Made by a program: the position numbers and the translations under genes. A DNA stretch of 16,327 nt from a virus (taxonomy: Duplodnaviria; Heunggongvirae; Uroviricota; Caudoviricetes). The notes beneath the pieces are model-generated. The model ran no database searches. It saw only the letters and a program-made list of their open reading frames with translations, and had not been told where the DNA came from. Each line of letters opens with the position of its first letter. Position 1 is the stretch's first letter. Shown piece after piece: positions 757 through 15,565 of the stretch. The stretch is taken from the IMG/VR virus record IMGVR_UViG_2609459850_000004, positions 1 through 16,327 of that record; one strand, 5' to 3'.

Positions 757-1049
757 AAATGTCTCCCTGTTTTTTTATGGCTTATGCAGTTTGCCATCCA
801 TGACGGAACGATACCGTATCCGCCTGTTTAGGTGTGGGCGATTGTAACAGCACGTCAACTGATGTCCAGACGCCCTGATTTGCTGATTTGATCATAGCCT
901 GGTAATCGCCACCCTGTAGGCTACTTGATTCTATAGAAACAGAAAAAGGCAAACGCAGCCTTTTCTACATTTTCAGAGTAACTCCCGTCAGTTGCGAGCA
1001 AAAAAGCCGCTACGCTTTAGCTATACGTGCTAATTCAAGAGAAGAGACC

Positions 1050-1982
1050 ATGGACAACGACAAAATTGATCAACACAGCGACGAAATTGAAGTTGAGAGC
1101 GAAGAAAAAGAGCGCGGCAAAAAAATAGAAATAGATGAAGACCGACTCCCCTCCCGGGCGATGGCAATTCATGAGCATATCCGCCAGGATGGTGAAAAAG
1201 AGCTGGAACGCGACGCAATGGCGCTACTGTGGTCAGCCATTGCGGCGGGTCTGTCGATGGGCGCTTCGTTACTGGCAAAAGGGATATTTCAAGTCGAACT
1301 GGAAGGTGTGCCGGGCAGCTTCTTGCTGGAGAATCTCGGTTATACCTTTGGTTTTATTATCGTCATTATGGCCCGCCAGCAATTATTTACCGAAAATACC
1401 GTGACTGCGGTACTACCCGTCATGCAAAAACCGACAATGAGCAACGTCGGCTTACTTATACGGTTATGGGGCGTCGTGCTGCTGGGTAATATTCTCGGGA
1501 CAGGTATTGCGGCGTGGGCATTTGAATATATGCCTATCTTCAATGAAGAAACTCGCGATGCATTTGTCAAAATCGGCATGGATGTGATGAAGAACACCCC
1601 CAGCGAGATGTTTGCCAACGCGATCATTTCCGGCTGGCTGATCGCCACTATGGTTTGGATGTTTCCTGCAGCGGGTGCGGCAAAGATTGTGGTGATTATA
1701 TTGATGACCTGGCTTATTGCCCTGGGTGACACCACCCATATCGTGGTCGGTTCTGTTGAAATCCTCTATCTGGTGTTTAACGGTACGCTGCACTGGAGCG
1801 ATTTCATCTGGCCCTTCGCACTACCTACTTTAGCGGGGAACATCTGCGGCGGCACCTTTATCTTCGCGTTAATGAGTCATGCACAGATTCGTAACGACAT
1901 GAGCAATAAGCGTAAAGCAGAAGCACGCCAAAAAGCAGAACGTGCGGAAAACATTAAGAAAAATTATAAAAACCCGGCATAA
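1050..1982 (+). CDS. yfdC: YfdC inner-membrane protein, formate/nitrite transporter (FNT) family
   Basis: 310-aa ORF with an acidic N-terminus followed by multiple hydrophobic segments. Recognised as E. coli YfdC, which lies between mlaA and argW in E. coli; TAA stop at 1980-1982. Confidence 0.88.
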   Translation: MDNDKIDQHSDEIEVESEEKERGKKIEIDEDRLPSRAMAIHEHIRQDGEKELERDAMALLWSAIAAGLSMGASLLAKGIFQVELEGVPGSFLLENLGYTFGFIIVIMARQQLFTENTVTAVLPVMQKPTMSNVGLLIRLWGVVLLGNILGTGIAAWAFEYMPIFNEETRDAFVKIGMDVMKNTPSEMFANAIISGWLIATMVWMFPAAGAAKIVVIILMTWLIALGDTTHIVVGSVEILYLVFNGTLHWSDFIWPFALPTLAGNICGGTFIFALMSHAQIRNDMSNKRKAEARQKAERAENIKKNYKNPA

Positions 1983-2017
1983 ATGGCGAGGGTTTAAGCA
2001 ATCGAGCGGCAGCGTAC

Positions 2018-2046
2018 TTACCCCGCACTCCATTAGCGGGTATACT
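2018..2046 (+). promoter_or_regulatory. Putative sigma70 promoter of the tRNA-Arg gene
   Basis: TATACT hexamer at 2041-2046, 11 nt upstream of the mature tRNA 5' end, with a weak -35-like TTACCC at 2018-2023 (17-bp spacer). Pattern only, no experimental support. Confidence 0.3.
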
Positions 2047-2057
2047 CATGCCGCATT

Positions 2058-2132
2058 GTCCTCTTAGTTAAATGGATATAACGAGCCCCTCCTAAGGGCT
2101 AATTGCAGGTTCGATTCCTGCAGGGGACACCA
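2058..2132 (+). tRNA. argW: tRNA-Arg (anticodon CCU)
   Basis: 75-nt cloverleaf: acceptor stem GTCCTCT/AGGGGAC, anticodon stem AGCCC/GGGCT with loop CTCCTAA (anticodon CCT), T-arm GGTTCGATTCC, discriminator A and encoded CCA at 2130-2132. Confidence 0.93.
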
Positions 2133-2293
2133 TTTATCAGTTCGCTCCCATCCGTACCAGTCCGCAAAATCCCCTGAATATCAAGCCTTCCGTAGATTCA
2201 CAGTTCGTCATGGTCCGCTTCAGATCGTTGACAGCCGCACTCCATGACGGGTAAAAAGTGGATAAAATAATTTTACCCACCGGATTTTTACCC

Positions 2294-3451
2294 ATGCTCA
2301 CCGTTAAGCAGATTGAAGCAGCAAAGCCGAAAGAAAAACCATACCGCCTACTCGATGGTAATGGCCTGTACCTTTATGTCCCTGTGTCAGGGAAAAAGGT
2401 ATGGCAGCTTCGCTACAAGATTGACGGTAAGGAGAAAATCCTGACCGTCGGAAAATATCCGCTAATGACTTTGCAGGAGGCAAGAGATAAAGCATGGACC
2501 GCGAGGAAAGACATCTCGGTTGGCATCGATCCGGTAAAAGCGAAAAAGGCTTCGTCTAACAACAATTCCTTTAGTGCCATTTACAAGGAATGGTACGAGC
2601 ACAAGAAGCAAGTCTGGTCAGTAGGCTATGCAACTGAACTTGCCAAAATGTTTGATGACGACATTTTACCCATCATCGGCGGTCTTGAGATTCAGGATAT
2701 TGAGCCGATGCAACTGCTGGAAGTAATCCGCAGATTTGAAGATCGCGGTGCAATGGAGCGAGCCAACAAAGCCCGCAGAAGATGCGGCGAGGTTTTCCGT
2801 TACGCTATTGTCACCGGCAGGGCTAAATATAACCCGGCACCTGACCTTGCTGACGCCATGAAGGGGTACCGCAAGAAGAACTTCCCGTTTCTTCCTGCAG
2901 ACCAGATCCCGGCATTCAATAAAGCACTGGCAACATTTTCAGGAAGTATCGTATCGCTCATTGCCACCAAGGTTTTACGCTACACTGCCCTAAGAACGAA
3001 AGAGCTTCGTTCCATGCTATGGAAGAACGTCGATTTTGAAAACAGGATTATCACCATCGACGCCAGTGTGATGAAGGGCCGCAAGATTCATGTTGTTCCT
3101 ATGTCAGACCAGGTGGTTGAGCTTCTCACTACGCTAAGCTCCATCACTAAACCAGTCTCAGAGTTTGTTTTTGCCGGGCGCAACGATAAGAAGAAGCCAA
3201 TCTGCGAGAACGCGGTATTGCTTGTGATCAAACAAATCGGCTATGAAGGTCTGGAAAGCGGTCACGGATTCAGGCATGAATTCAGCACGATTATGAACGA
3301 GCACGAATGGCCTGCCGACGCCATTGAAGTGCAACTGGCACATGCCAACGGCGGATCTGTGCGTGGAATTTACAATCATGCTCAGTATCTCGATAAGCGC
3401 AGAGAAATGATGCAGTGGTGGGCGGACTGGCTTGATGAAAAGGTAGAGTGA
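2294..3451 (+). CDS. intS: P4-family tyrosine integrase (IntS-like prophage integrase)
   Basis: ORF directly downstream of the tRNA and reading away from it. N-terminal arm-binding-type region (KPYRLLDGNGLYLYVPVSGKKVWQLRYKIDGKEK), C-terminal catalytic region with conserved R (LRTKELRS), HGFRHEF and a tyrosine (RGIYNHAQY). The ORF track starts at GTG 2258; I prefer ATG 2294 (385 aa) from my recollection of IntS. Confidence 0.9.
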   Translation: MLTVKQIEAAKPKEKPYRLLDGNGLYLYVPVSGKKVWQLRYKIDGKEKILTVGKYPLMTLQEARDKAWTARKDISVGIDPVKAKKASSNNNSFSAIYKEWYEHKKQVWSVGYATELAKMFDDDILPIIGGLEIQDIEPMQLLEVIRRFEDRGAMERANKARRRCGEVFRYAIVTGRAKYNPAPDLADAMKGYRKKNFPFLPADQIPAFNKALATFSGSIVSLIATKVLRYTALRTKELRSMLWKNVDFENRIITIDASVMKGRKIHVVPMSDQVVELLTTLSSITKPVSEFVFAGRNDKKKPICENAVLLVIKQIGYEGLESGHGFRHEFSTIMNEHEWPADAIEVQLAHANGGSVRGIYNHAQYLDKRREMMQWWADWLDEKVE

Positions 3452-3691
3452 GCGACCTTAAACTATCGAATAGCACAAAGCCTTGCAATCCAGTGCAAAG
3501 CTTTGTGCGTATCAGTTTTGTCTGAGTGTTCTACTGAAAACATAGTAAAATCGGTAACAGTTGGAAATCATTCAATACTCGCACTATCAGAAGTTCACCA
3601 GCCAGTCGTAGCCCGTACCTCCGTACGACGTGCTACGGTTTCATTTATCCGGTGCGCCGTAAAACCCCGTCCTTCAGGGCGTGGAGGATGT

Positions 3692-3775
3692 CAACTGGAC
3701 GCACTGGAGCTGGTCGATACTTCCGGTGCGCCAGATATTGAATGGCCTACGCCTCCGGCTGTTCAGGCCAGATGA
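3692..3775 (+). pseudogene. Relic of a second tail-fibre-assembly (Tfa) gene, C-terminal end only
   Basis: Plus-strand translation ends ...QLDALELVDTSGAPDIEWPTPPAVQAR*, the Tfa C-terminal signature (compare the minus-strand Tfa ending VDTSTAPDVIWPEQPEA). The upstream 60 codons of ORF 3503-3775 look like junk. It is convergent with, and overlaps, the 3' end of the intact tfa. Confidence 0.45.
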
Positions 3776-4163
3776 CATCAGGGGCCGTTGACGTATCAAC
3801 GGCTTTCACCGCTTTTTTATGCGCCATCCACTCAGACAATTTCGCTTTATCCTCGTCACTTATATCGCCGAGCATTAATTCACCCCGCCAGTCGGCGGTT
3901 ACTTCGTCAATCTGCTGTAGCCGTTGCTGGCGATATTGTTCTGCCGCCGCTATTTGCTCTTCATGCGTTGGAGGTGGCGCATCGACCCAAGCTGGCAGTC
4001 CAGTGCTATCTGCACCAAGCATTTTACCTTCAGGCCAGGCAATACCAGCAAATTGGCTGTAGAGGTTAACACTGATTTCAATAGCTGATTCAGGAATAAA
4101 CCTGCTTTCAGGTTCAATATAAAATCCGTTATCAACGGCGTCATAAAAGTATCTTTTTTCCAT
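3747..4163 (-). CDS. Phage tail-fibre assembly protein (Tfa, lambda Tfa / P2 gpG / Mu U family)
   Basis: 138 aa; C-terminus KAVKAVDTSTAPDVIWPEQPEA matches the conserved Tfa tail. It follows the fibre gene, with the stop of the fibre gene adjacent to its start. Confidence 0.85.
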   Translation of the reverse strand: MEKRYFYDAVDNGFYIEPESRFIPESAIEISVNLYSQFAGIAWPEGKMLGADSTGLPAWVDAPPPTHEEQIAAAEQYRQQRLQQIDEVTADWRGELMLGDISDEDKAKLSEWMAHKKAVKAVDTSTAPDVIWPEQPEA

Positions 4164-4164
4164 G

Positions 4165-4878
4165 TTAATAACCTATTGCCAATAAACAACCGGCAGCTTG
4201 AGCAGCCGTCCATGAAGTCCCATTAACTGTTCCTAAAGCACGAACTTTGACTGTCGTTCTGGTAGAGCCATTAATATCGAAGCCCCACGTTGTGCCGGAC
4301 GATCCATTCCACGAGCTAGCAGAAGCACCTGAGTCAATCGCAGTGGCATGAAGCAGAGCGTTAGGAAATGCTATAGGTAATGTAACGGTTGCTAATCCAG
4401 TCGAATCGGCAACAAATCCAGAGACCCACTGGAAAATGATATTTTGTTCAACCCCATCAATTAAAGCCGGGATCAATATTCTCCCGGTATTACCAGTTAC
4501 CCCTACAGCAGCGCCAAGTTTTGCCGCTTCTCCCAAACCAAGATTTTCGAGAGCCGTTTCCACCGTGCCGTCCGATTTGATATCGCCAAACGGATTCTTG
4601 CGGCTCAGGTATTCAACAGCAAACCCCGATCCCAGCAATTCAACAAAACCGGGCAGATCACCATTATCAAGCACATCCCGTTGCGTTTTGTCACTTACAA
4701 ACTGGGCCAGAGCTGCAGCAATAAAGCTGGCCTGCCGAATAACCTTATTGACTTGCGCACTGGATGCTTTACCTGCTGTAAATCCGGATAAAAGCGCGGG
4801 CAACGCTTCCCATTCCTCCTGCGATATAACATTGGCACTTCGATCCGTTGCAAACGCTTTAAAGTCATTTTTCGCCAT
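4165..4878 (-). CDS. Phage tail-fibre protein (short; gpH / Mu S position)
   Basis: Position between the gpI-like gene and tfa. Start ATG at 4878 overlaps the stop of the upstream gene (TGATG); the track's alternative start is 4896. Gly/Ser/Thr-rich C-terminal half typical of fibre distal domains. Assignment is by synteny plus composition. Confidence 0.65.
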   Translation of the reverse strand: MAKNDFKAFATDRSANVISQEEWEALPALLSGFTAGKASSAQVNKVIRQASFIAAALAQFVSDKTQRDVLDNGDLPGFVELLGSGFAVEYLSRKNPFGDIKSDGTVETALENLGLGEAAKLGAAVGVTGNTGRILIPALIDGVEQNIIFQWVSGFVADSTGLATVTLPIAFPNALLHATAIDSGASASSWNGSSGTTWGFDINGSTRTTVKVRALGTVNGTSWTAAQAAGCLLAIGY

Positions 4879-5558
4879 CAGAGTAATACTCCCCATGCTC
4901 CTACATCAAAACCACTGATGAATTCGTTATCTATATCAAAACCAAAAAATTTTGAGCCTTCCGATGGGGTTTCCACCGAAGGTGTTTCAATGCCTCCCGC
5001 CCATACCCCGGCGGCTTTTACTGTGAGATACCCCTGTTTAATTGCCGCAATTAACTCACGCGATACATCTGAAATATCAGTATCAGGAAAGACCCAGACC
5101 GATATCGTCATGTCCTGGTTATCGACTATCTGCATTCGCAGTCCGGATCCTGCTGTCGCCGCGTCAAGAATTACCGGAAGCGAATCATTCCGTCCGTCCC
5201 AGTTATTAATCGCAATCTTCGCTTTAAGAATGACACGATAAGTTTCATCGCTGAGATACATGTATCCAGAATCAGGATCATATGGCCCCTGCCATACCCC
5301 CTGATCATATCCAATCCCGTCGGCATCCCAGCTGAAATAGACACCTGAGATAGGCTGGCTGACAACACGGCTGCGTCCGATCCACAATCCAAGAATGTCA
5401 AGTTGCACACCAACCGCAGAGTCAATATCAAATGCAGTAATCAGCCCTCTGGTGGCAGCCGCAACATCAATAAGCGGCCGGGTCATCAGATCAACATGTG
5501 CAAGAAATTTAGGTTTGGTGGCGTGATAGTTTGTGATTAGTTCGGTGTATTTGCTCAT
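4878..5558 (-). CDS. Baseplate protein, P2 gpI / Mu gp48-like (DUF2313/YmfQ-like)
   Basis: 226 aa; ATGA start/stop overlap with the J-like gene; synteny J-I-fibre. Family recognised from memory. Confidence 0.65.
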   Translation of the reverse strand: MSKYTELITNYHATKPKFLAHVDLMTRPLIDVAAATRGLITAFDIDSAVGVQLDILGLWIGRSRVVSQPISGVYFSWDADGIGYDQGVWQGPYDPDSGYMYLSDETYRVILKAKIAINNWDGRNDSLPVILDAATAGSGLRMQIVDNQDMTISVWVFPDTDISDVSRELIAAIKQGYLTVKAAGVWAGGIETPSVETPSEGSKFFGFDIDNEFISGFDVGAWGVLL

Positions 5559-6754
5559 GACTCCACCGTTATAACGATATTTTCCGGGGTACAGGACGCA
5601 GATTCGTTATATCTGATATCAATGTTTGATGACGACAAAGCCCCAGGGGATTTCCCAATCGTCAGTTCCTGAATATCGTAATAGCGTGCATTCCCGCCAC
5701 TCACCACGCCAAGATTCGCCGGTGAGTAAATGCGACTTAAAAGGACCGAATCACCAATCATCAGACTATTGATATAGTCGGAAATAGCCGGCTGGATCTG
5801 CTGCCCTATCTGTGAGGTATAACCCGTAAAAACTTTTAATTTAATCCGGGCATAAACAGGCACATCACTGGAACGCGAGAATTTGATTACATGGGGATTG
5901 CCGTATTTATCCGGAACCGTAACGGATGTTGTACCGTGAGTGGCTGTACCCTGGCCTTTATTCCCTCTAATAGCCTGAGCAATATCCGTCACATCACCGC
6001 CATCCACAATTACAGCAACAGAGTGTGGCGGTAACCCGTTACCGTCCTCCGAACCAGTATCGTTTTCATAGAGTTTGTGGCGGGTTACACCGGTAACATT
6101 AGAAACAGCACCATCCAGTGCTTCAAATGGGGTTATTGATGGCAACGCAACACTTTGCGACTGGCGGATACGTAACTCCGCATCAGTTTCTGCTGGAGTG
6201 CCTACAGTAGCTGCAGCAGGATTGGTTACCGAAACCCAGCCACGGGTCGGTGTGTTAATGGTGGTAATAGTCCCGGCCATCGCCGCAACCGAACCGCTAT
6301 TCGCACATGTGGCCGTCACCAGCACAGTACCATCAACCCCGATTGCTACACTCGCGGGAAAATTCCAGATAATGCCGTTTTTATCCCGTGCGGAGCCATT
6401 CGTGATAGTCGTGCCAGCCGTACCGGTTAACAGAAGGTCAGCAGTAGAGTTTGTTGCTACTTTTCGCGTGATCCCGTTAATTTTCACATTGCTGCTAAGC
6501 GCTGCGGCCTGCGCTGTCGTCGGTGAAAACGAGTTGTAGATCTCGATAGCGGTATTGTTAGCATCATGCACAGCCAGAGCCACCAGCGCGACCATTTGCC
6601 CATCTTTGCTGTCTGGTTCGAGGTAGGCATCACTACCGTAAATCTGCCTGAAATAGCTGGTCAGTGTATCGAGGATTGTCTGGTAATCAGGCGCACTAAT
6701 CCCCTGGGCGGTTACCGTTGCCGATAGCCCCAGCGTGTCGAGGTTCAAAGCCAT
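5555..6754 (-). CDS. Baseplate J-like protein (P2 gpJ / Mu gp47 family)
   Basis: 399 aa; size and position between the W-like and I-like genes, with translational coupling on both sides. Confidence 0.75.
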   Translation of the reverse strand: MALNLDTLGLSATVTAQGISAPDYQTILDTLTSYFRQIYGSDAYLEPDSKDGQMVALVALAVHDANNTAIEIYNSFSPTTAQAAALSSNVKINGITRKVATNSTADLLLTGTAGTTITNGSARDKNGIIWNFPASVAIGVDGTVLVTATCANSGSVAAMAGTITTINTPTRGWVSVTNPAAATVGTPAETDAELRIRQSQSVALPSITPFEALDGAVSNVTGVTRHKLYENDTGSEDGNGLPPHSVAVIVDGGDVTDIAQAIRGNKGQGTATHGTTSVTVPDKYGNPHVIKFSRSSDVPVYARIKLKVFTGYTSQIGQQIQPAISDYINSLMIGDSVLLSRIYSPANLGVVSGGNARYYDIQELTIGKSPGALSSSNIDIRYNESASCTPENIVITVES

Positions 6755-7108
6755 TTATGCCTCGCTTGTTACAGTCGTCTGGCCGTAGATTGTGTCAATG
6801 GAGGAAGTGAAAGTGACGCGTCGGCTGTTGCCGTCATAATTGGTATCGAAGGAAAGAATCGACAGAACGCCCGGCGTGTCCTGTATGCGTTCGCGTATAG
6901 CCAGGATGTAGACGTCTGATCGCTGTTTCCCAAGCACTGACTGAACATACGGCGTACCTTCCGTCAGATCGAGAAACCACTGACCGCGCCACAGCTCGAA
7001 ACGGGTTTTTACGGCCTGGGCGACACACTCCGGACTGTCTATAAGGAAGGTGTCGTCACCCTGCCCGAAAGTGTAATCACCGTCAGCATCTTCTCGTCGG
7101 TATCGCAT
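6755..7108 (-). CDS. Small baseplate protein, gpW / gp25 / Mu gp46-like
   Basis: 117 aa; sits between the V-like and J-like genes and its start overlaps the V stop (TAATG). Assignment mainly by size and synteny. Confidence 0.5.
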   Translation of the reverse strand: MRYRREDADGDYTFGQGDDTFLIDSPECVAQAVKTRFELWRGQWFLDLTEGTPYVQSVLGKQRSDVYILAIRERIQDTPGVLSILSFDTNYDGNSRRVTFTSSIDTIYGQTTVTSEA

Positions 7109-7848
7109 TATTGCGGCCCTCCAGTAGTCCCCCCGCCTGTCTGAACTCCGCCATGTTTATGCGTGGCGACACTTATACCTGAAGCTGTCACATCATTCGT
7201 TACCGTAACCGGCCCAAGCATCGTCGCAGTACCACCACTTTCTCCCATTCCCTGAGACAGGTTACCGTTAATCGTTACGTTGCCGTTCAGCGTGATGGTC
7301 GGGGATGTGATTGTCGTTCCACCTTCAGCCGTAGCCGTAAGCTGGCCCGGCGTTTTAATGGTGATGTTATGTCCTGCAGCGACCTCTACGAACGCCGCAC
7401 CATCATCGGTTCGCAGCTGCGCGGCGCTGGTGCTGATACCACTGATTTTCTGTGCTTGCGACTGCGGGCCAACGATGGCGAACGCATCAGATAAGTCATG
7501 CTGGCGCGGGTCGACGGTCTCCTGAACGCCGCCGCTCTGCCACCAAAAATCAATGCAACGGTCGGCAAAGATCAGCAGGCACTCGTCGCCTTCTTTTACC
7601 GGAAAGGTCAGCGTGCAACCGCCGCCGCGCGGGAAGATAACCGGCACATCCACCAGCGGTTTTAATTCGGTGGAGCCATCGCCAACAATACCGCGAAGCG
7701 CCACTTCTACTGTGCAGGTTACAGCGTCAGGATCGAACGACTGAATGATGCCAGGCATCGCCACGCGCATTTGGGTAGACACTGAATCGGCAATGGCCTG
7801 CGCGGTCTGCTGCTCACCGCCGATCTGTGATTGAGTTGGAATTGGCAT
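7108..7848 (-). CDS. Baseplate spike/hub protein (P2 gpV / Mu gp45 family)
   Basis: 246 aa; C-terminus ...ATHKHGGVQTGGGTTGGPQ matches the gpV apex motif (P2 gpV ends HTHKHPGDSGGTTGSPL) and N-terminal ...MPGIIQSFDPDAVTCTVEV resembles the gpV OB-fold start. An internal Met (MRVAMPGII) could be the true start. Confidence 0.8.
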   Translation of the reverse strand: MPIPTQSQIGGEQQTAQAIADSVSTQMRVAMPGIIQSFDPDAVTCTVEVALRGIVGDGSTELKPLVDVPVIFPRGGGCTLTFPVKEGDECLLIFADRCIDFWWQSGGVQETVDPRQHDLSDAFAIVGPQSQAQKISGISTSAAQLRTDDGAAFVEVAAGHNITIKTPGQLTATAEGGTTITSPTITLNGNVTINGNLSQGMGESGGTATMLGPVTVTNDVTASGISVATHKHGGVQTGGGTTGGPQ

Positions 7849-7858
7849 AAAAACCCCA

Positions 7859-7882
7859 TAAAAAAACCAGCCGAAGCTGGTT
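7859..7882 (-). terminator. Rho-independent terminator-like hairpin (minus-strand sense)
   Basis: Stem AACCAGC (7865-7871), loop CGAA, stem GCTGGTT (7876-7882), preceded on the plus strand by A7, which is a T-run after the hairpin on the minus strand. Lies about 10 nt upstream of the gpV-like start. Confidence 0.4.
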
Positions 7883-8059
7883 TGGTATCAATTACTAAGC
7901 TACATCAGTGTGAAGTAAGGCTTTTCCGCTGCAATGGCACACATTCACAAGGTGTATTAGGATATGTTTGCAACAAGTAAGCATTAAAAATCAATTTCAG
8001 CCATGAAGCCGCCATAGAGTGGACCTGCACCATCGCATTCTTGACTACAGGAGTAACAA

Positions 8060-8350
8060 ATGGGATTTAGATTTCGCAAAAGAATCCGGATTGCGCCCGG
8101 ACTCGCGATCAACATTAGCAAAAGCGGAGTAAGCACTTCGATTGGTGGTAAAGGTTCCACCATTAACATCGGGAAAAAAGGCGTAAAGATGACAAATGGC
8201 CTTCCCGGCACTGGGCTGTCGCATACCACTAACCTTTACTCTCCCGGAAAATCGACAGAAAAAAAACAACTTACTCATAAGCAAAAAATAATTAGAAACA
8301 TCCTGTTCGTAATTATTGTGTTTATTATAATTAAAGCTCAATATTTTTGA
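8060..8350 (+). CDS. Small DUF4236-like protein with C-terminal transmembrane helix
   Basis: 96 aa; RBS AGGAG at 8049-8053 with 6-nt spacer. N-terminus MGFRFRKRIRIAPGLAINISKSGVSTSIGGKG...PGTGLSHT matches the DUF4236 pattern as I remember it; C-terminal ILFVIIVFIIIKA is hydrophobic. AT-rich. Confidence 0.6.
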   Translation: MGFRFRKRIRIAPGLAINISKSGVSTSIGGKGSTINIGKKGVKMTNGLPGTGLSHTTNLYSPGKSTEKKQLTHKQKIIRNILFVIIVFIIIKAQYF

Positions 8351-8355
8351 CGCAT

Positions 8356-8386
8356 GCCCGCCTATCTGGCGGGCTATTTTACTTTT
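8356..8386 (+). terminator. Rho-independent terminator between convergent genes
   Basis: Perfect 7-bp stem GCCCGCC (8356-8362) / GGCGGGC (8368-8374), loop TATCT, then T-rich TATTTTACTTTT. The lipoprotein stop codon lies inside the stem. Confidence 0.6.
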
Positions 8387-9264
8387 CGGCAGTCGTATGT
8401 TGCATACTGTCGCGGCGCATCCATGCTGGCTTGTACCCACTGAGCGTTTAGGATGGCTTTTCCTTTACGTTTAATGTATTCAATACCAACCCAACGACCG
8501 GGCAGACTGGTAGCAACCATCCACTCCATTTTTATATTATCCGGTTCGTTGTTAGTGCTGCCACCAGCACCGATGGGAGTAATTTTTTGCGTCTCTGGTT
8601 TCGCGCCATTAATTCTGGCCCAGCCATCAGCAGAGGAAAGATCTATCCTATACGGTCCACAAACTATTATGTAATTGATGCCAAGTTTTTCGTTGCTGCG
8701 AGCTTTCCTGCTTTTCTCATAATCTTCCTTCGCAACATCATTCATCTTTTGATAGATAGCAGGTTGTTTTAAAGAAAACTCATTCAGCTTCTTAATAAAG
8801 TTTTCTCGCGGAACCTCTGCAAGCCCCATAGATTTTCTATCAAGGATATAGTCATCATATATCTTTGACACAACAGAAAGTGATGACAGTTTTTTAGCTA
8901 AATCATTTGCAAAGTTTAGATAATTAAGTGGTGAGTTGTCTCTTATATCAATAGCTCTAACTCCACCTGTACCGTATTCATGATAAGCAGCATAAAAAAC
9001 AGGTATACTTTCAGGTTTTTTGTTAATCGCTTTAATTAGTCCTTCTGGACCGCAAGACTCTCCACTCCAGTCAATAAGCGACTTCCCTTTCGATTTCCAT
9101 GTTTGGCAATCATCAGCTGATAAAATTAAAATTGGCTGCCACCCCGGGCGTTTTTTGTAACTAACATTCTTATCAGAATTGAAGCCTGCATTTGCGCATC
9201 CAGAAACGAGCAGCACCGACAGGAAAATCACACTGTATCGAAGTCCATTCATGTTCTTATACAC
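8374..9264 (-). CDS. Lipoprotein of unknown function
   Basis: 296 aa; signal peptide with lipobox LLVSGC; strong RBS AGGAGGAGG upstream of the GTG start at 9264 (alternative ATG at 9252). AT-rich compared with neighbours. Confidence 0.65.
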   Translation of the reverse strand: MYKNMNGLRYSVIFLSVLLVSGCANAGFNSDKNVSYKKRPGWQPILILSADDCQTWKSKGKSLIDWSGESCGPEGLIKAINKKPESIPVFYAAYHEYGTGGVRAIDIRDNSPLNYLNFANDLAKKLSSLSVVSKIYDDYILDRKSMGLAEVPRENFIKKLNEFSLKQPAIYQKMNDVAKEDYEKSRKARSNEKLGINYIIVCGPYRIDLSSADGWARINGAKPETQKITPIGAGGSTNNEPDNIKMEWMVATSLPGRWVGIEYIKRKGKAILNAQWVQASMDAPRQYATYDCRKVK

Positions 9265-9308
9265 TCAACCTCCTCCTGAACGAGCTATAGTCGCCTGGCT
9301 AATCAGAT

Positions 9309-9322
9309 GGCACTGTTGCAAA
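9309..9322. repeat. IS26 terminal inverted repeat (14 bp)
   Basis: GGCACTGTTGCAAA, the perfect reverse complement of 10115-10128. Confidence 0.95.
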
Positions 9323-9360
9323 GTTAGCGATGAGGCAGCCTTTTGTCTTATTCAAAGGCC

Positions 9361-10065
9361 TTACATTTCAAAAACTCTGCTTACCAGGCGCATTTCGCCC
9401 AGGGGATCACCATAATAAAATGCTGAGGCCTGGCCTTTGCGTAGTGCACGCATCACCTCAATACCTTTGATGGTGGCGTAAGCCGTCTTCATGGATTTAA
9501 ATCCCAGCGTGGCGTTGATTATCCGTTTCAGTTTGCCATGATCGCATTCAATCACGTTGTTCCGGTACTTAATCTGTCGGTGTTCAACGTCAGACGGGCA
9601 CCGGCCTTCGCGTTTGAGCAGAGCAAGCGCGCGACCATAGGCGGGCGCTTTATCCGTGTTGATGAATCGCGGGATCTGCCACTTCTTCACGTTGTTGAGG
9701 ATTTTACCCAGAAACCGGTATGCAGCTTTGCTGTTACGACGGGAGGAGAGATAAAAATCGACAGTGCGGCCCCGGCTGTCGACGGCCCGGTACAGATACG
9801 CCCAGCGGCCATTGACCTTCACGTAGGTTTCATCCATGTGCCACGGGCAAAGATCGGAAGGGTTACGCCAGTACCAGCGCAGCCGTTTTTCCATTTCAGG
9901 CGCATAACGCTGAACCCAGCTGTCAATCGTGGAGTGATCGACATTCACTCCGCGTTCAGCCAGCATCTCCTGCAGCTCACGGTAACTGATGCCGTATTTG
10001 CAGTACCAGCGTACGGCCCACAGAATGATGTCACGCTGAAAATGCCGGCCTTTGAATGGGTTCAT
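9361..10065 (-). CDS. tnp26: IS26 transposase Tnp26 (DDE, IS6 family)
   Basis: Translation MNPFKGRHFQRDIILWAVRWYCKYGISYRELQEMLAERGVNVDHSTI...GDPLGEMRLVSRVFEM recognised as Tnp26. ATG at 10065 lies 64 bp inside the element end; the track ORF begins at an upstream TTG (10083). Confidence 0.95.
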   Translation of the reverse strand: MNPFKGRHFQRDIILWAVRWYCKYGISYRELQEMLAERGVNVDHSTIDSWVQRYAPEMEKRLRWYWRNPSDLCPWHMDETYVKVNGRWAYLYRAVDSRGRTVDFYLSSRRNSKAAYRFLGKILNNVKKWQIPRFINTDKAPAYGRALALLKREGRCPSDVEHRQIKYRNNVIECDHGKLKRIINATLGFKSMKTAYATIKGIEVMRALRKGQASAFYYGDPLGEMRLVSRVFEM

Positions 10066-10114
10066 GTGCAGCTCCATCAGCAAAAGGGGATGATAAGTTT
10101 ATCACCACCGACTA

Positions 10115-10128
10115 TTTGCAACAGTGCC
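10115..10128. repeat. IS26 terminal inverted repeat (14 bp)
   Basis: TTTGCAACAGTGCC, the perfect reverse complement of 9309-9322. Confidence 0.95.
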
Positions 10129-10154
10129 CGTGCAGTTAAGCAGAGGGCTGAATA

Positions 10155-11306
10155 ATGGTGAACGAGAGACGAGATTATGAGGTTAATTTCCTGTACTACC
10201 CGGAAGTGTTCGCTGCGGCTCTGTCGCGTGTTGAACCAGACACGTCAGTCCTGGGCTGGCTGGGCCAGGCTCGCGCTCTGGCGTGCTGGTGTGAGCTGCT
10301 GAGGCTCGACCCACTGGAGACCTGTGTGGAGTGGTCTGCGCGTGGTGTGAACGCGGGTAAGGCCGACAGGGCAATGTTAGCGTCGGCGCTGCGTGACCTG
10401 GATGACCTCGACCGGCTGGCGGCGGCTGGGGCGTTCCTGCGCTCCTCCGGGGTGGCTGCTGACGTTGCTGCCGGGCGCATCGCTGTTCGTGAGCCCACCG
10501 AGGACGAGCTGGCTGCTCGTCAGGCGCATCTGGTTGCACTACGGGAACGTGCGGCTGCTGCTGCGGCGAAGCTGACGGAGGCTCGCATTAAGGCAACCGG
10601 TAGGGCGCGGATGCTGCTGCATCGCGCCAAAAAGCCGGGGAATGCGGCGCTGTACTGGAAGGCCAAGGAGCGAGCTGCGGAGCGTTTGCTGCCGTGCCCT
10701 GACGACGTGAAGTGCTCGGACTGGAGCACGTTCCTGCCGGTGCTGGGTCGCGTGTGGTGGAATGAGTCGCTTCTGGTGCCGCTGTACGGGGTGAACGAGT
10801 CACTACGGTTGGAGTGTATGTCAGTGGAGGTGATTTGCGGTCGCGCCAACCCTGAGGCGGCAGGTTCGCTGGGCGAGAAGCGTGGCCTCGAGAATGCACC
10901 GCGTGAGGGGCTGTTTTACCCGTTCGACCTGTCCAGCGTCCGTTCTGGTAACCCTCTGGTCATCTGCGAGGGGTTCATGTCGGGGCTGGCGCTCTCTCTG
11001 CTGATGGGCGGCAAGCTGCCGGTGATCTGCGCGATGTCGGTGGGTAACTTCGGGGCGACAGTGCAGACGCTGAATAAGTTTGTTATGGGTGACTCCCCGT
11101 TCGTACTGGTACCGGACATTGGCGGGCAGGATCTGGCTATCGATCAGGCTATCCCGAATGCCCGGGTGATCGACCTGTCGGCGGTACCGGGAGCCGAGGG
11201 CGTGGACGGCTACGACCCGTTCGATCTGCTGGCGCGTCATGGTGTCGAGATGGGACGTAAGTATCTGCGGAGCTTGTTTCGTGAGGCGCGTGACGCGAGC
11301 CTGTAG
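10155..11306 (+). CDS. Toprim-like domain protein (primase-related?), high GC
   Basis: 383 aa; RBS GAGGG 7 nt upstream of the ATG. C-terminal half carries NPLVICEGFMSGLALSLL...PVICAMSVGNFGATVQ...FVLVPDIGGQDLAIDQ, resembling Toprim motifs (DnaG-like EGxxD...DxD region). The Ala/Arg-rich N-terminal half is unrecognised. In-frame stop at 10149-10151 shows the ORF is not truncated by IS26. Confidence 0.55.
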   Translation: MVNERRDYEVNFLYYPEVFAAALSRVEPDTSVLGWLGQARALACWCELLRLDPLETCVEWSARGVNAGKADRAMLASALRDLDDLDRLAAAGAFLRSSGVAADVAAGRIAVREPTEDELAARQAHLVALRERAAAAAAKLTEARIKATGRARMLLHRAKKPGNAALYWKAKERAAERLLPCPDDVKCSDWSTFLPVLGRVWWNESLLVPLYGVNESLRLECMSVEVICGRANPEAAGSLGEKRGLENAPREGLFYPFDLSSVRSGNPLVICEGFMSGLALSLLMGGKLPVICAMSVGNFGATVQTLNKFVMGDSPFVLVPDIGGQDLAIDQAIPNARVIDLSAVPGAEGVDGYDPFDLLARHGVEMGRKYLRSLFREARDASL

Positions 11307-11337
11307 TGGTACCAGGTTTCTCTCTCTCGTTGTTCTC

Positions 11338-11363
11338 AGCCCGCTTCGGCGGGCTTTTATTTG
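11338..11363 (+). terminator. Rho-independent terminator
   Basis: Stem AGCCCGC / GCGGGCT with TTCG tetraloop, followed by TTTTATTTG; 32 nt after the stop at 11306. Confidence 0.6.
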
Positions 11364-11374
11364 AGGATCTCCCC

Positions 11375-11680
11375 ATGACCGACCAGACCACCACCATCGC
11401 CGACCTGGCGCTCTCACAATCCGCGTTTCTCGTCTCTCAGGCTGTCGTTGAGCTGGACGCCATGTTCGGCGAGGGCTATGCCGCTGCTCACCCGGCTGTG
11501 CTGGCTCAATTCCTGCAGACGGCGGGGGTCATCTTCGCCACACAGCTGCAGGCTTCTGCCGCGTTCGACCTTGCCTCGCAGCTCGACCGCCTGATTGGCT
11601 TGGGGCTGGCTTGCTGCAAGCCAATCAGGGTGCCTCGCACTAAAACGCCGGGGCCGGCTGCGATCAGTCCTTTGCTATGA
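11375..11680 (+). CDS. Hypothetical small protein (101 aa)
   Basis: ATG at 11375 preceded by GAGGA at 7-nt spacing, immediately after the terminator. Ala/Leu-rich with no recognisable motif. The track ORF begins upstream at 11306 without an RBS. Confidence 0.45.
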   Translation: MTDQTTTIADLALSQSAFLVSQAVVELDAMFGEGYAAAHPAVLAQFLQTAGVIFATQLQASAAFDLASQLDRLIGLGLACCKPIRVPRTKTPGPAAISPLL

Positions 11681-11828
11681 GGCGACGCCCCAGGGGTTCG
11701 CCCCTGATCAGCTGGAGTCCGTAGACCGGACGTCTGATGCCCGGTGGCGGGCGTTCTACCTCGCCAGCTATGGCTACTGCCTCGAGTACGCGGGGTTTTG
11801 ACCTGGGCGGCGGCTGCCGCGCTACCGG

Positions 11829-12356
11829 TTACTTCAGGTCAGGCATCCGGCGGGTGATCACCGTGTTGATGCGGTCGTTGTTCCATGGGCGACCGTTCGA
11901 CTGCAGGAGCCCTGCCTCGTTCAGCGCCTGGGCGATAGCTTTGTTGTCGTAGCGGAATCCCCGATCGCGCTGCTCCTCCCTCATGCGCCGTATGGTGGCC
12001 ATCACCTCGGCCTCGTCGTAATGCCCCGAAAATTCAGCGCCAGCGGGGCGCTGTGCTGCGTTTTGTGTTTCAGATGAGTTACTAGTCAGCTTTTCAGCCC
12101 GTGGCCTTGTAGCGCGTCCTGTTGGCTTCTGTAGCACATTGTGTTTCAGCGTATTCGAGATGTCCTGCAGCAGCTCCACCATCAGGTCGAGGCGGTTGCC
12201 GCTCTCCCCCTGCGGCTCTGGTATGCCAAGGTATGCACGGAGTGCGTCGGTAATCACGTCGGTGCGGGTACGGTTCGTTTTCTCGGCCAGCTCGTTCGTC
12301 TGCTCGAGCAGGTCGGCGGGGAGACGTAGGCTGAATGTCGGGCTTTTGCGCTGCAT
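11829..12356 (-). CDS. Ribbon-helix-helix DNA-binding protein with recombinase-like C-terminal domain
   Basis: 175 aa from ATG 12356, with AGGAG-containing RBS. N-terminus MQRKSPTFSLRLPADLLEQTNELAEKTNRTRTDVITDALRAYL is a typical RHH (CopG/Arc-like) segment. C-terminus EVMATIRRMREEQRDRGFRYDNKAIAQALNEAGLLQSNGRPWNNDRINTVI resembles the recombinase-family DNA-binding domain pattern (IA..LN..G....G..W....V..I). No serine-recombinase catalytic domain is present. Confidence 0.55.
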   Translation of the reverse strand: MQRKSPTFSLRLPADLLEQTNELAEKTNRTRTDVITDALRAYLGIPEPQGESGNRLDLMVELLQDISNTLKHNVLQKPTGRATRPRAEKLTSNSSETQNAAQRPAGAEFSGHYDEAEVMATIRRMREEQRDRGFRYDNKAIAQALNEAGLLQSNGRPWNNDRINTVITRRMPDLK

Positions 12357-12860
12357 CCGTGTTGCTCCTGTGTGGTCTGGTGCCACCGATTGAAACACGT
12401 TTGTAACTTCTCGTCTATTTCGACGTGTTGCGCTTGTGCTGCATAACCGGTACGGGTCGAGCCCTTCGGCTCGACTCTCTGGTGCCAGTGGACAAGCCCT
12501 GTGGACAATTTGCCGTGTCAGTGAATAAATGCGTGGCGCGATCACGACAGCTCGATAAGCGGTCGCCGTTCAGTGGCGTGAAGGGTTAGGATCGGTTAAG
12601 CTGATCGTCGTTCGTGGATTATGTTGGGTGATCTGCGGGCACAAAAAAAGCACCTGGCCGGGTGCTTTGATTGCCGGGGTTAAACCCCGTAGTTTCGAGT
12701 CAGTGTCTTGACGGACGTACTCGAAGGAAATCATACATCACGTTGGGTGATTCTCAAATCCTCGCTGAGAATTGTATCACGTCGATAAGATCGTGCAAGT
12801 CGATTTCCTCCGTAATCCCCCGCCTGACGCCGACTCCTACGTTTTTAAAGGAGTTGTAAC

Positions 12861-14420
12861 GTGCCAAAAACTAAACAAGAAATAGCCACTGTAACGCCGA
12901 TCACCGCTGCACCGTCACCGCTGTCGCTAAAATTGGGCGATGCGCTGTTTTCTGTCTTGTCGGTGTCTGCGGACTGGTCTGGTGACTACCGCGCTCAATT
13001 CGAGCTGTATGGCCTGAATGTAAAAGCTATCAACTCTGCCGTCGGCACTGCCGTCTGGCACGCTGGCAAGGGGCGGTTCCTCTCTGTCCTAAATGGCTCC
13101 CTGACCGAGTTCGATAAGGGCGACGGAATGAAGCTGCTGGAGGACTCCTGCGGCAAGTTCTGGCACCGCACCGATGCGTTTATCGCCCGCCTGACTGACC
13201 TCAAAATCAAGACCGACGACAAGGTAACCAAGGCGTGTATCGATATGGCTCGGGCTGTTCGTCAGGCGGGGGCTGAGTTCATCATGCTGCGCCGTCAGGT
13301 GGCAGTCGTTCGCCTCGACGTGGACATGTTCGCCACGGCTCCTCGCGTCGAACTGGTGGGTGAAACTGTGACGTTCGTCCGTCCTCATGCTCCCTATCCG
13401 GTGGCTAATGCCGACAGTGACGTGGTGGCTGATTGGCTGGTTCATTTCCCTCAATGCCATGAGTTCCTCGACGCGCTGGTTGCAGCCCGCTTTGCCTCAA
13501 GCCGTAAGAATGCCTACCTGTTTTTCCGTGCGCAGTCCGATTGGGGTAAGGGGCTGCTGTTTGGTGCTGGCGGCGTTCTGTCACGCCTGGGAGCGACGGT
13601 GGAGCTGTCCGAGGGGGAGCTGCTCAACATCCTGAGCGGTGCCAACTCCGGTGTAACGGCTAGTCACTTCATGGGGGCGCTGGCGCTGATCGTCAACGAA
13701 TGCACCAGGGTGACGAAAAAGCACTTTCGTCTTGAGGAGTCGCTGGCTCTGACGCCGAAGTACCTCACGACGCAGTGCGTGAACCTGTACATGAAAATTT
13801 TCACCAGTGCCGACCCGATCCCCGGACTGTCCGACTCCGACGGAATTGACCCGCAGGTGGCGAACCGCTTTTCTATGCTCGATCTGCAGGGCGACATCAA
13901 GACGCGCCCGCTGTTCCTGTCCGACAAGGGACGCTATGTCGACAGCCTGACGTCGTTCTTTGCCGCCGAGCTGAATGCCAGGGTGGCGTCCTATCAGGCT
14001 AAGGGCTTTGAGACCGCTCGCCGCGATGCCGACCATGTTCTGGCTGCTTTCACCACTGCGCATGGGTTGGCGAATGCTGCCGGGCTGATCACCGACGCGT
14101 ATGACGAAATTCGGGCTGAGTGGGTGGCGTTCGTCCATGGGCGTGTTGCTGATGGGCACCCGGACTTCCTCACCTTCGAATCAAAGGCTGGTTTGGTTCT
14201 CCGCTCTCCTGTCGGATGCTGGGGTAAGTTCCTCGACTGGTACGTGGACAAAAGCGAACCGCTGCGCCGTGCTCGCCTGATGCATGACCGCGATCTGATC
14301 ATCGGCTGCGCGAAAAAATACCGCGATGTTGGTGGCGCTGCTGAAGGCAAGGGGGTGCTCATCCCGTTCGTGTCCGGCTCGATGCCCGACAACGTCCACC
14401 GGTTCCGGTACAAAAATTGA
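12861..14420 (+). CDS. Hypothetical 519-aa protein, candidate replication-associated (unrecognised family)
   Basis: Long high-GC ORF with GTG start preceded by AAGGAG at 7-nt spacing, followed by a strong terminator and an iteron array. No family recognised; the replication role is inferred from context only. Confidence 0.65.
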   Translation: MPKTKQEIATVTPITAAPSPLSLKLGDALFSVLSVSADWSGDYRAQFELYGLNVKAINSAVGTAVWHAGKGRFLSVLNGSLTEFDKGDGMKLLEDSCGKFWHRTDAFIARLTDLKIKTDDKVTKACIDMARAVRQAGAEFIMLRRQVAVVRLDVDMFATAPRVELVGETVTFVRPHAPYPVANADSDVVADWLVHFPQCHEFLDALVAARFASSRKNAYLFFRAQSDWGKGLLFGAGGVLSRLGATVELSEGELLNILSGANSGVTASHFMGALALIVNECTRVTKKHFRLEESLALTPKYLTTQCVNLYMKIFTSADPIPGLSDSDGIDPQVANRFSMLDLQGDIKTRPLFLSDKGRYVDSLTSFFAAELNARVASYQAKGFETARRDADHVLAAFTTAHGLANAAGLITDAYDEIRAEWVAFVHGRVADGHPDFLTFESKAGLVLRSPVGCWGKFLDWYVDKSEPLRRARLMHDRDLIIGCAKKYRDVGGAAEGKGVLIPFVSGSMPDNVHRFRYKN

Positions 14421-14426
14421 ACAATA

Positions 14427-14448
14427 ACCCGCTTCGGCGGGTTTTTTT
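14427..14448 (+). terminator. Rho-independent terminator
   Basis: Stem ACCCGC / GCGGGT with TTCG loop followed by T7 (14442-14448); 7 nt after the TGA at 14418-14420. Confidence 0.7.
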
Positions 14449-14454
14449 ATGGCT

Positions 14455-14535
14455 TGGAACCTCGCTGGAACCTCGCTGGAACCTCACTGGAACCTTCTTA
14501 AACCCGCGCCATTGCTGGTTGGAACCTTTGGAACC
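14455..14535 (+). repeat. Direct iteron-like array of heptamer TGGAACC
   Basis: TGGAACC at 14455, 14466, 14477 and 14488 (exact 11-bp period, unit CTGGAACCTCG), plus two more copies at 14520 and 14529. Confidence 0.8.
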
Positions 14536-14606
14536 TGATTTTCTAACCTTCTCTCTCCAATAACGAAAGCTCTCTCAATTTCCCTGATTACTCTTTTTAA
14601 AAAATA

Positions 14607-14696
14607 GGTTCCAAGGTTCCATCGTTGATTTTAAAAGATTTTTTAAGGTTCCAATGCGGTTCCAAGGCGGTTCCACAAGGTTCCAAGGCGGTTCCA
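14607..14696 (-). repeat. Inverted-orientation array of the same heptamer (GGTTCCA)
   Basis: GGTTCCA at 14607, 14615, 14647, 14658, 14669, 14679 and 14690 (10-11-bp period in the last five, unit GCGGTTCCAAG). Separated from the direct array by an AT-rich spacer (14536-14606). Confidence 0.8.
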
Positions 14697-15565
14697 GCTC
14701 AATTCCTGCGCAGTTGACGCGCCGCAGCTGCACCCCGTTGGGGATGCACTTTGCGTGTCGTGTTTGGATCTGGTGTCGCTCTCCCCGGTGCGTGGTTTGC
14801 ACCTGCCGGATCTCCAGCTAAAAAAGCCCGGAGGGAAATGGGGGCAGTTTCCAGTGCTGGCGGGGGTTGGCGGGTGGTTTATGCACGGTGGATCGTGGTT
14901 GGCACCGTGCATTGGTGTTTGGCGGCAATCGCCGCGCCTACCGGTTTGCCAAATCCTGCCCCAACTTTCAGGGGGTACAGGGGCTTAAATGGGGTGCTGT
15001 CGTGTCGTTGGGTTGGTTCGGGGTTGAGGCGCTTAGAATGGCTCTGGTGCGTTCTGGTGGGGGCGTGCTTTCTAACCGGTAGGGGCGCAGCTGTCGCCGC
15101 GCTCCTGGTTGGGGTTAGCGCCAGCGTTCGAGCCGGTACCTGACAGTGATCCCGTTCTTCGACATGGTGTGGACGTAGTCCGGGTTTTTCAGCGTGAGGT
15201 CGATCGCCTTGGTGCGGTGCGTCTTGTATTTGTACCGGGCTTCCTCGGGGAAGTTCTCGCCTGTGACCATCTCATCCCATGACTCTGTTCACAGCGTATG
15301 CCATGCCGAGCGTACTGCGGAAGACAACGCCACGCTGTTGAAGCAAGTCAGCTTCTTAGACAAGCGTGTGACTGTATTGTCGGAGCAGCTGAAGCAGTTC
15401 GGGAACCTCTACAAGCAGAACAGGAGTTAAGACGGCAGAAGAACGAGAACGCTCAAGAGCTGACAAAGTCGGCACCAAAAATCGCCCCTGTGGCATTCAA
15501 GAAGAGATCAGGCCCTGATTATGGGCCTAGCATGTAATGCCAGGATGAATTGCTCTCTGTGCCTT

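Follow-up and report, generated by a model that had tools for sequence, protein, structure and literature searches.

A GC-rich block beside IS26 probably forms the replication module in a family of small, untyped plasmids of the Enterobacterales

What is a block of GC-rich DNA with unfamiliar genes doing in a record of viral DNA? The block lies in the IMG/VR virus record IMGVR_UViG_2609459850_000004 (Caudoviricetes), and the whole stretch of 16,327 nucleotides that we analyzed is called the window here. A preliminary description, made from the letters alone, placed the block at 10129–15114 and proposed that it was a captured fragment of a plasmid or phage-plasmid replicon; a partition system, a defense or exclusion system, and something new were held open as alternatives. 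Our analysis indicates that the block serves as replication module in small (11–15 kb) Enterobacterales plasmids, a family that lacks a replicon type. Its 519-residue protein, termed Rep519 here, and the short repeats (iterons) behind the rep gene very probably form an initiator–origin pair.

The composition of the block sets it apart: its GC content is 62.6% at 10155–12356, 58.8% at 12861–14420 and about 62% at 14697–15114, compared with 48.5% for positions 1–9308 of the window. All four of its open reading frames (ORFs) are intact. The + strand carries a gene for a 383-residue Toprim protein (10155–11306), a gene for a 101-residue protein (11375–11680) and rep itself (GTG start, 12861–14420), and the − strand carries a gene for a 175-residue ribbon-helix-helix (RHH) protein (12356–11829). 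These ORFs agree with the RefSeq annotation of identical or related plasmids, in which the products are labeled “hypothetical protein”. A Shine–Dalgarno-like sequence precedes every one of them (AGAGGG, GAGGA, AGGAG and AAGGAG). Terminator-like hairpins are found 3′ of the Toprim gene (11338–11355, + strand, intrinsic type) and in the rep leader (12668–12647, − strand), and an intrinsic terminator follows rep (14426–14443, + strand). Composition, ORFs and hairpins thus bear out the preliminary picture of a GC-rich block with four genes, each with its own ribosome-binding site, and three terminators. The right boundary has to be moved, however. Homology to the plasmid backbone does not end at 15114; it continues to about 15285, inside a truncated gene for an 80-residue protein (15115–15285, − strand) of which the 3′ part, codons 25–80 and the stop codon, remains. 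The block is therefore slightly longer than described.

Where is such a block found outside the window? It is 90–93% identical, over 90–95% of its length, to circular plasmids of 12.6–30 kb from Citrobacter and E. coli, and parts of it occur in about 50 plasmids from E. coli, Citrobacter, Enterobacter, Klebsiella and Serratia. In PLSDB, 21 plasmids encode a homolog of Rep519; nearly all are 11–14.7 kb long and non-mobilizable. None of the six records of 11–15-kb plasmids that we opened has a MOB-suite replicon type. The block is carried by 21 of 5,426 complete E. coli genomes, on plasmids only. What the backbones carry beyond the module is a serine resolvase gene, a gene for a 919-residue protein with an SLT domain, and small ORFs that match no family; a further recognizable replication gene was not found in them. 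Nor were an integrase, terS, capsid genes or packaging genes, which would mark a phage-inducible chromosomal island (PICI), recognized in these source elements. The literature yielded nothing specific on this plasmid family or its replicon. In one of the plasmids, NZ_CP056203.1, the 919-residue protein (6827–9586) has a C-terminal SLT lytic-transglycosylase domain and is followed by five or six small ORFs (9616–12105), and the protein has PHROG matches to phage endolysin and tail-lysin. A satellite-like nature of elements of this kind is conceivable.

What kind of protein is Rep519? It has no match in Pfam or NCBIfam, and neither the single proteins nor a profile of the Rep family retrieved any PDB entry by sequence. 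That family was represented by an alignment of 14 sequences, and a second word-indexed search with the alignment gained one protein. Among the PHROGs, Rep519 matches positions 372–791 of the 826 in phrog_35045, “DNA primase” (E = 2e-46). By tblastn, it matches the primases of the Vibrio phages CP-T1 and vB_VchM-138 (E = 5e-38; 27% identity over 83%) as well as primases of Pseudoalteromonas phages, and its distant relatives in a large protein database are proteins of 733–838 residues with N-terminal Prim-Pol and PriCT_2 domains. Because the match covers the C-terminal half of phrog_35045, because the phage proteins are primases, and because the fused relatives carry Prim-Pol and PriCT_2 in front, Rep519 corresponds to the half of a primase-helicase in which the helicase is situated.

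The predicted structure of Rep519 points in the same direction. Its best structural matches are the C-terminal helicase of NrS-1 polymerase and vaccinia D5, with 289–302 aligned residues at 11–12% identity, and these alignments span both the collar and the ATPase domains. A search of BFVD returned the phage primase relatives with a TM score of 0.77. The model thus has an AAA+-like core fold of helicase superfamily 3 (SF3) with a preceding collar domain. The nucleotide-site motifs can be located at 224-AQSDWGKG-231, 275-ALIVNE-280 and TSAD (315–318), and are followed by N335-R336-F337; this last triplet is invariant and could be an arginine finger, an assignment made by alignment position alone. 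A C-terminal domain occupies approximately residues 384–501. From these comparisons, Rep519 is predicted to have an SF3 replicative-helicase fold of the D5/NrS-1 type and to be related to phage primase-helicases.

Does the DNA behind rep look like an origin? The heptamer TGGAACC occurs 14 times in the window, and 13 of these copies fall within the 242 bp at 14455–14696. By chance, all 16.3 kb of the window should contain 2.2 copies, and none of 200 shuffles reached 14. The arrays begin 35 bp past the rep stop codon, and their copies are mostly 11 bp apart. The left array (14455–14535, + strand) holds six copies, of which four are spaced at 11 bp and two more at 9 bp; the right array (14607–14696) holds seven copies on the − strand. 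An AT-rich spacer of 31% GC (14536–14646), which presumably serves as the unwinding element, includes two of the inverted iterons (14607–14621). To the right lies conserved, GC-rich (62%), G/T-skewed non-coding DNA (14697–15114). Two opposed sets of iterons thus surround an AT-rich center directly 3′ of rep, as in the pri-rep-ori origins discussed below. The order of iterons, AT-rich DNA and GC-rich DNA that the preliminary description had likened to a replication origin is therefore present as stated.

This geometry is identical in six lineages and was also found for distant relatives of Rep519; all relatives examined have a left array behind the rep terminator, then AT-rich DNA, then a right array in inverted orientation. 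Adjoining the right array is a block of about 40 bp (14722–14757), GCAGCTGCAC-CCC..GGGG-ATGCACTTTGCG, that is kept in all lineages, whether they encode a Rep519-type or a VapE-type protein (see below), and is inverted in the lineage whose Rep is 41% identical to Rep519 (L007, 6880–6925). We considered that this block might form a hairpin and rejected the idea: it is not more stable than shuffled sequences (z = −1.5 and −0.5).

If Rep519 reads these iterons, the two should change together. Indeed, plasmids whose Rep is 97–99% identical to that of the window carry the repeat TGGAACC, whereas at 94% identity the repeat is TGTAACC or TGCAACC, at 63% it is of the TGTAACC type, at 41% it is CTGTTAAC and at 38% it is AACCTCACC. 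Relatives with 26–38% identity, from marine Gammaproteobacteria, Rhodobacteraceae and several metagenome-assembled genomes, are mostly fused proteins of 800–1000 residues. They too have heptamer arrays directly downstream, for example GGTGACA in five inverted and six direct copies. As judged from this series of sequences, the TGGAACC iterons are cognate to the 519-residue gene across lineages. In a separate observation, the Rep encoded by contig NODE_16 of Scandinavium hiltneri (13,974 bp) is 38% identical, and GTGACCA/TGGTCAC occurs 11 times downstream. The assembler tagged this contig with a coverage of 1167x, which may hint at a multicopy plasmid.

The change of repeat can be localized. Of the 27 residues that tell TGGAACC-type from TGTAACC-type Rep proteins, 25 lie in residues 384–501. 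At the DNA level, a TGGAACC plasmid and a TGTAACC plasmid are 100% identical over 12857–13756, only 55–91% identical over 13757–14856, and 99–100% identical beyond. Because the divergence is confined to this interval, a 1.1-kb block with the Rep C-terminal domain and the iterons has been exchanged as a unit, which fits the C-terminal domain as the putative recognizer of the iterons. The RHH and Toprim proteins do not follow the repeats. RHH identity is 98% between plasmids whose repeats are different and 86% between plasmids that share a repeat, and the Toprim protein has the same accession in Rep519-type and VapE-type plasmids. Since their identities do not track the repeats, both were ruled out as the iteron reader. 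The preliminary combination of a primase-like protein, a candidate initiator and iterons is thereby borne out, except that the likely initiator is the helicase-like Rep519 and not the RHH protein. The proposal of a captured plasmid or phage-plasmid replicon is likewise supported, as the iterons are cognate to the 519-residue gene and both large proteins belong to replication families.

An entire substitution was observed in pSCZE1 and its relatives. There, a gene for a 431-residue VapE-domain protein, with its own GGGTGGAAC/GGGTGGATC iteron arrays, exactly fills the slot that begins at the start codon of rep and closes with the arrays (12857 to about 14756 in the window). Around this slot, pSCZE1 and the window-type plasmids share the leader (91–98%) and the downstream GC-rich DNA (92–98%), and their Toprim, 93-residue and helix-turn-helix (HTH) proteins are the same. 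The VapE protein is a homolog, by sequence, of SaPI1 Rep (structure 7pds_A, E = 6.5e-25), which has been characterized as an initiator-helicase that loads itself. A further match of the VapE protein is to phrog_2249, in its helicase part; the primase part of that family matches the 383-residue Toprim protein. Rep519 and the VapE cassette protein are related by fold class only.

What do the remaining genes contribute? The 383-residue protein has a confidently predicted all-helical N-terminal domain (residues 1–145) and a C-terminal Toprim domain with the residues E272 (in CEG), D321, and D354/D357 (in DPFD). Its Toprim_3 match in Pfam is sub-threshold, and tblastn of the protein against phages gave no match. 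The zinc ribbon of DnaG-type primases was not detected, as there is neither a Zn_Ribbon_Prim match nor any CxxC pair in the protein. We regard it as a divergent Toprim primase-like protein that belongs with the Toprim_3 primase-helicases. Several database records, those of RefSeq among them, name the family “AAA family ATPase”; the Toprim protein showed neither a P-loop nor an AAA domain, and the name therefore appears to be an annotation error. Its gene lies 1.5 kb upstream of rep on the same strand, and between the two are the 101-residue gene and the divergent RHH gene. The preliminary description could not place the 519-residue protein and would have been contradicted by families unrelated to replication; the homologies instead lead to an SF3 helicase fold for the 519-residue protein and to Toprim_3 primase-helicase kin for the 383-residue protein.

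The 101-residue protein is helical and matches phrog_1231, a family of unknown function (E = 3.8e-5); nothing was found for it in Pfam or NCBIfam. Wherever a lineage has the Toprim gene, the gene for this protein comes after it. The lineage with a 38%-identical Rep keeps both the Toprim protein (44% identity) and the 101-residue protein (47%), whereas the lineage with a 41%-identical Rep has neither, so the conserved core comprises the RHH gene, rep and the origin. The RHH assignment made at the outset holds (RHH_1, E = 2.5e-6), while the recombinase-like domain also claimed for this protein comes down to sub-threshold Pfam matches of the C-terminal part (Recombinase, E = 0.007; HTH_62, E = 0.027). 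In every lineage examined, the RHH gene is linked to rep and divergent from it, at 33–98% identity. The protein is probably a transcriptional regulator of the rep region.

The region between the RHH gene and rep (12357–12860) also appears to have a regulatory role, as a control and leader region; it is 91–98% conserved even where the downstream helicase gene has been replaced. Within it, at 12639–12757 on the − strand, we recognize a candidate antisense RNA of about 85 nt, with a promoter-like TTGAGA-16-TATGAT (12757–12730), two stem-loops and the hairpin at 12668–12647 as its terminator. The fold has a z of −4.1. Elements of different sequence occupy the same place in three other lineages, with z values of −4.4 and −4.0 (L006 and L007) and −1.7 (L005). 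We infer from the conserved − strand terminator and promoter-like site that a structured RNA antisense to the rep leader may be made. The candidate has no Rfam family match; Rfam matches inside the module are sub-threshold and terminator-driven, and the one match at gathering level is a tRNA outside the module. The RHH–rep intergenic region further contains tandem 9-mers that resemble DnaA boxes, AGTGGACAA and TGTGGACAA (12487–12508). Equivalents are present in L005 and L010 (perfect TGTGGATAA plus CGTGGATAA) and in L007 (TTATCCAC, twice). The counts of the DnaA-box-like and GTTGGGTGAT repeats in the window are not above chance; the conserved position of the 9-mers across lineages is suggestive.

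How might the module work? Because the source plasmids lack both a further replication gene and a replicon type, we propose that it operates like the pri-rep-ori replicons of the Staphylococcus aureus pathogenicity islands (SaPIs), the PICIs and P4, with a self-loading helicase-initiator. By analogy with SaPI/PICI Rep and P4 alpha, Rep519 would be an initiator-helicase of the SF3 class that loads itself. Its C-terminal domain would recognize the 7-bp iteron TGGAACC, and the protein would assemble on both inverted arrays 3′ of its own gene and load as a double hexamer. By the same analogy, it would then melt the AT-rich spacer at 14536–14646 and become the replicative helicase. The 383-residue Toprim protein would supply primers, a contribution that is dispensable in one lineage; the absence of a plasmid primase there implies reliance on host priming. 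The level of rep, and with it the copy number, could be set by the RHH protein, possibly together with the ~85-nt antisense RNA.

The design that we invoke is best known from the SaPIs and PICIs. In these elements, the product of rep is a helicase, SF3 or MCM-like, that loads itself and reads iterons of 5–6 bp through a C-terminal winged-helix domain; the origin lies directly 3′ of rep, with opposed iterons to either side of an AT-rich stretch; and the pri-rep-ori segment replicates autonomously, in E. coli among other hosts (PMC9371898; PMC6092414). SaPI1 Rep, SaPI5 PriRep5 and the pri-rep of EcCICFT073 share with the module the order of pri, rep and a 3′ iteron origin. Several features differ. 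The module resides on free plasmids, which encode a resolvase and no integrase, and the 101-residue and divergent RHH genes separate pri from rep. Unlike the SaPI Reps, to which it has no similarity detectable by sequence, Rep519 has non-canonical nucleotide-site motifs. As neither an integrase nor a packaging gene was found, the source elements are not PICIs. The module resembles the P4 alpha protein in combining a Toprim-type primase, an SF3 helicase, a C-terminal domain that would by analogy bind the origin, and short iterons. P4 alpha unites the three functions in one polypeptide, and P4 needs a second repeat region, crr; here, primase and helicase-initiator have a gene each, and the window showed no second array at a distance.

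Other comparisons are more partial. The primases of CP-T1 and vB_VchM-138 (phrog_35045) are the closest sequence relatives of Rep519 and share with it the motifs SDWGK, NE, SA[DE] and NRF. These phage proteins of about 730–840 residues have N-terminal Prim-Pol and PriCT_2 domains that Rep519 lacks; the plasmids instead pair Rep519 with a separate, unrelated Toprim primase. The helicases of NrS-1 polymerase and vaccinia D5 have canonical Walker motifs, and we know of no iteron origin associated with either. Iterons beside an AT-rich region are also a feature of theta plasmids of the Rep_3/RepA type, and IncQ plasmids likewise encode their own priming and unwinding functions. The Rep_3/RepA repeats are direct and 17–22 bp long, in contrast to the 7-bp cores, 11-bp period and inverted arrays seen here, and the helicase of the module is of SF3 rather than of the DnaB-like kind in IncQ (RepA/RepB/RepC). 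No ORF of the module matched Rep_3, RepC or any other initiator family in Pfam or NCBIfam. Finally, the minimal replicon of the archaeal plasmid pRN1 consists of the small CopG-type RHH repressor ORF56, the primase/SF3-helicase ORF904 and adjacent origin DNA (PMC4234260). pRN1 is similar in joining a small RHH protein, an SF3-helicase replication protein and neighboring origin DNA; it differs in the co-transcription of ORF56 and ORF904, in the fusion of prim-pol and helicase within ORF904, and in an origin that lacks the double inverted iteron array.

Several observations weigh against our interpretation and are best considered with the explanations that they favor. The nucleotide site of Rep519 (residues 224–318; 13530–13814 in the window) departs from the canonical form in three motifs. 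In place of the Walker A motif GxxxxGK[ST], AQSDWGKG lies at the strand-loop-helix and lacks the Ser/Thr (GK[DG] in the family); in place of the Walker B motif hhhhD[DE], ALIV is followed by N279 and the invariant E280, with Asn for Asp in nearly all members; and in place of T-S-N in motif C, T-S316-A317-D318 lacks the sensor Asn (S-A-[DE] in the family). Helicase activity is consequently not assured, even though the altered motifs are conserved family-wide. Rep519 might then bind and melt the origin as a pseudo-ATPase or loader that recruits host DnaB/DnaC in the manner of the classical iteron initiators, and both the conserved DnaA-box-like 9-mers in the control region and the lineage without any plasmid primase would suit such a protein. 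We regard this as improbable: Lys230, Glu280 and Arg336 are invariant across relatives of 22–97% identity, as one would expect of a functional ATPase, the helicase fold is retained in full, collar included, and the fused relatives are primase-helicases. Further, the covariation of domain and iterons could come from linkage in one recombination block rather than from recognition; D-I-G replaces DxD in the Toprim domain, the model of which is weak overall (pLDDT 59); and hhalign found no similarity between the Rep519 family and the VapE cassette protein (probability 0.1). The copy in the window raises concerns of its own. Of the 59-residue HTH gene that precedes the Toprim gene in the source plasmids (weak HTH_23, MerR and HTH_17 matches), only the last 26 bp remain (10129–10154, + strand); the rest, together with the operon promoter, was removed by IS26. 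The sole plasmid with this copy beside IS26, NZ_CP145712.1, has an IncR rep gene, and the copy need not be active for that reason. It could thus be an inert relic, carried with IS26 mosaic DNA, unused for replication and with its Toprim operon unexpressed, a reading that also accords with a right end at which a truncated gene is joined to a mobD fragment and with the prophage DNA of the chromosome that the block abuts here. Such a relic is a real, if doubtful, possibility. The four ORFs, the leader and the iterons are all intact; the core kept in every lineage (RHH, rep and origin) is complete; the origin region (14421–15285) is 99.7% identical to that of the free plasmid NZ_CP056203.1 (L001); and the iteron arrays are those of that plasmid except for one spacer base.

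The remaining explanations concern the nature of the system rather than of this copy. The module could be the replication unit of a phage satellite or phage-plasmid, with the 11–15-kb circles as extrachromosomal satellites that replicate in the PICI/P4 style. A pri-rep-ori design with an HTH gene upstream of pri is typical of PICIs and P4, the relatives of Rep519 are phage primases, and the backbone combines the 919-residue SLT protein and its endolysin/tail-lysin matches with a run of small unassigned ORFs. Against this stand the lack of any recognized integrase, capsid, terminase or packaging gene, the serine resolvase, as in plasmids, and the deposition of all records as circular or linear Enterobacterales plasmids. 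We consider the satellite reading unlikely, and it does not change the function of the module. Partition, which the preliminary description had offered as an alternative, would make the repeats a centromere bound by the RHH protein in the manner of ParG or omega, so that the module stabilizes rather than replicates. RHH proteins do bind centromeres in some par systems, and that of the module has weak PHROG matches to families labeled “partition protein”. The module has no ParA/ParB-type gene and no ParA/ParM-type NTPase, the repeats co-vary with rep and are not followed by the identity of the RHH protein, and inverted arrays around an AT-rich core are the design of an origin; we hold a partition role to be very improbable. 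The other alternative, an anti-phage defense or exclusion system, was prompted by unannotated proteins of atypical GC content on a mobile element. None of the four proteins matched a PADLOC family, the two large ones are members of replication families, and a covariation of gene and iterons has no place in a defense model, which leaves this explanation scarcely credible. The replication module that we favor is of a known kind, so far unannotated, and does not amount to the new kind of system that had also been contemplated.

Recognition of Rep519 and its iterons provides a replicon assignment for plasmids that are now untyped and a marker for typing schemes. No new class of system is opened thereby; what is added is a new, unannotated replicon of a known kind. 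The family also provides a natural series of specificities, in which one scaffold is paired with at least four iteron sequences and a one-base iteron switch falls within a 1.1-kb block. That a VapE-type helicase has cleanly replaced Rep519 behind the same leader offers further material for studying how self-loading SF3 initiators read their origins. More speculatively, Rep519 and its phage relatives might constitute a distinct SF3-derived clade of initiators with a rewired nucleotide site, which would open origins independently of ATP or with different metal coordination, or would act as loaders; the switch from TGGAACC to TGTAACC would then map a compact, portable recognition domain. We think this reading unlikely.

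How did the module come to lie in this window? Positions 1–9308 are E. coli chromosome, 99.9% identical to chromosomes up to position 9308, and contain mlaA, yfdC, tRNA-Arg(CCT) (2058–2132), an intS-type integrase gene (2258–3451) and a prophage with baseplate genes. Only 9309–16327 matches the IncR plasmid NZ_CP145712.1, at 99.9–100%; the idea that the whole window is part of that plasmid was rejected for 1–9308, which is chromosomal. IS26 (9309–10128, − strand), a boundary element outside the replicon whose inverted repeat ends exactly at 10128, therefore joins chromosomal prophage DNA to plasmid DNA. The junction at 9308/9309 reflects either IS26-mediated integration of a plasmid into the prophage or an assembly join across IS26. 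The suggestion that IS26 had moved the module is plausible; its left end was cut by IS26, and the right end is not bounded by IS26. Directly after the truncated gene for the 80-residue protein lies a fragment (15307–15441) that is 93–97% identical to mbeD/mobD of ColE1-type plasmids of 3–4 kb, and its place at the truncated end of the module shows the region to be a mosaic. The transposase of this IS26 copy (9361–10065, − strand) differs from that of the other copy in NZ_CP145712.1 by two adjacent residues, Y48D and R49S.

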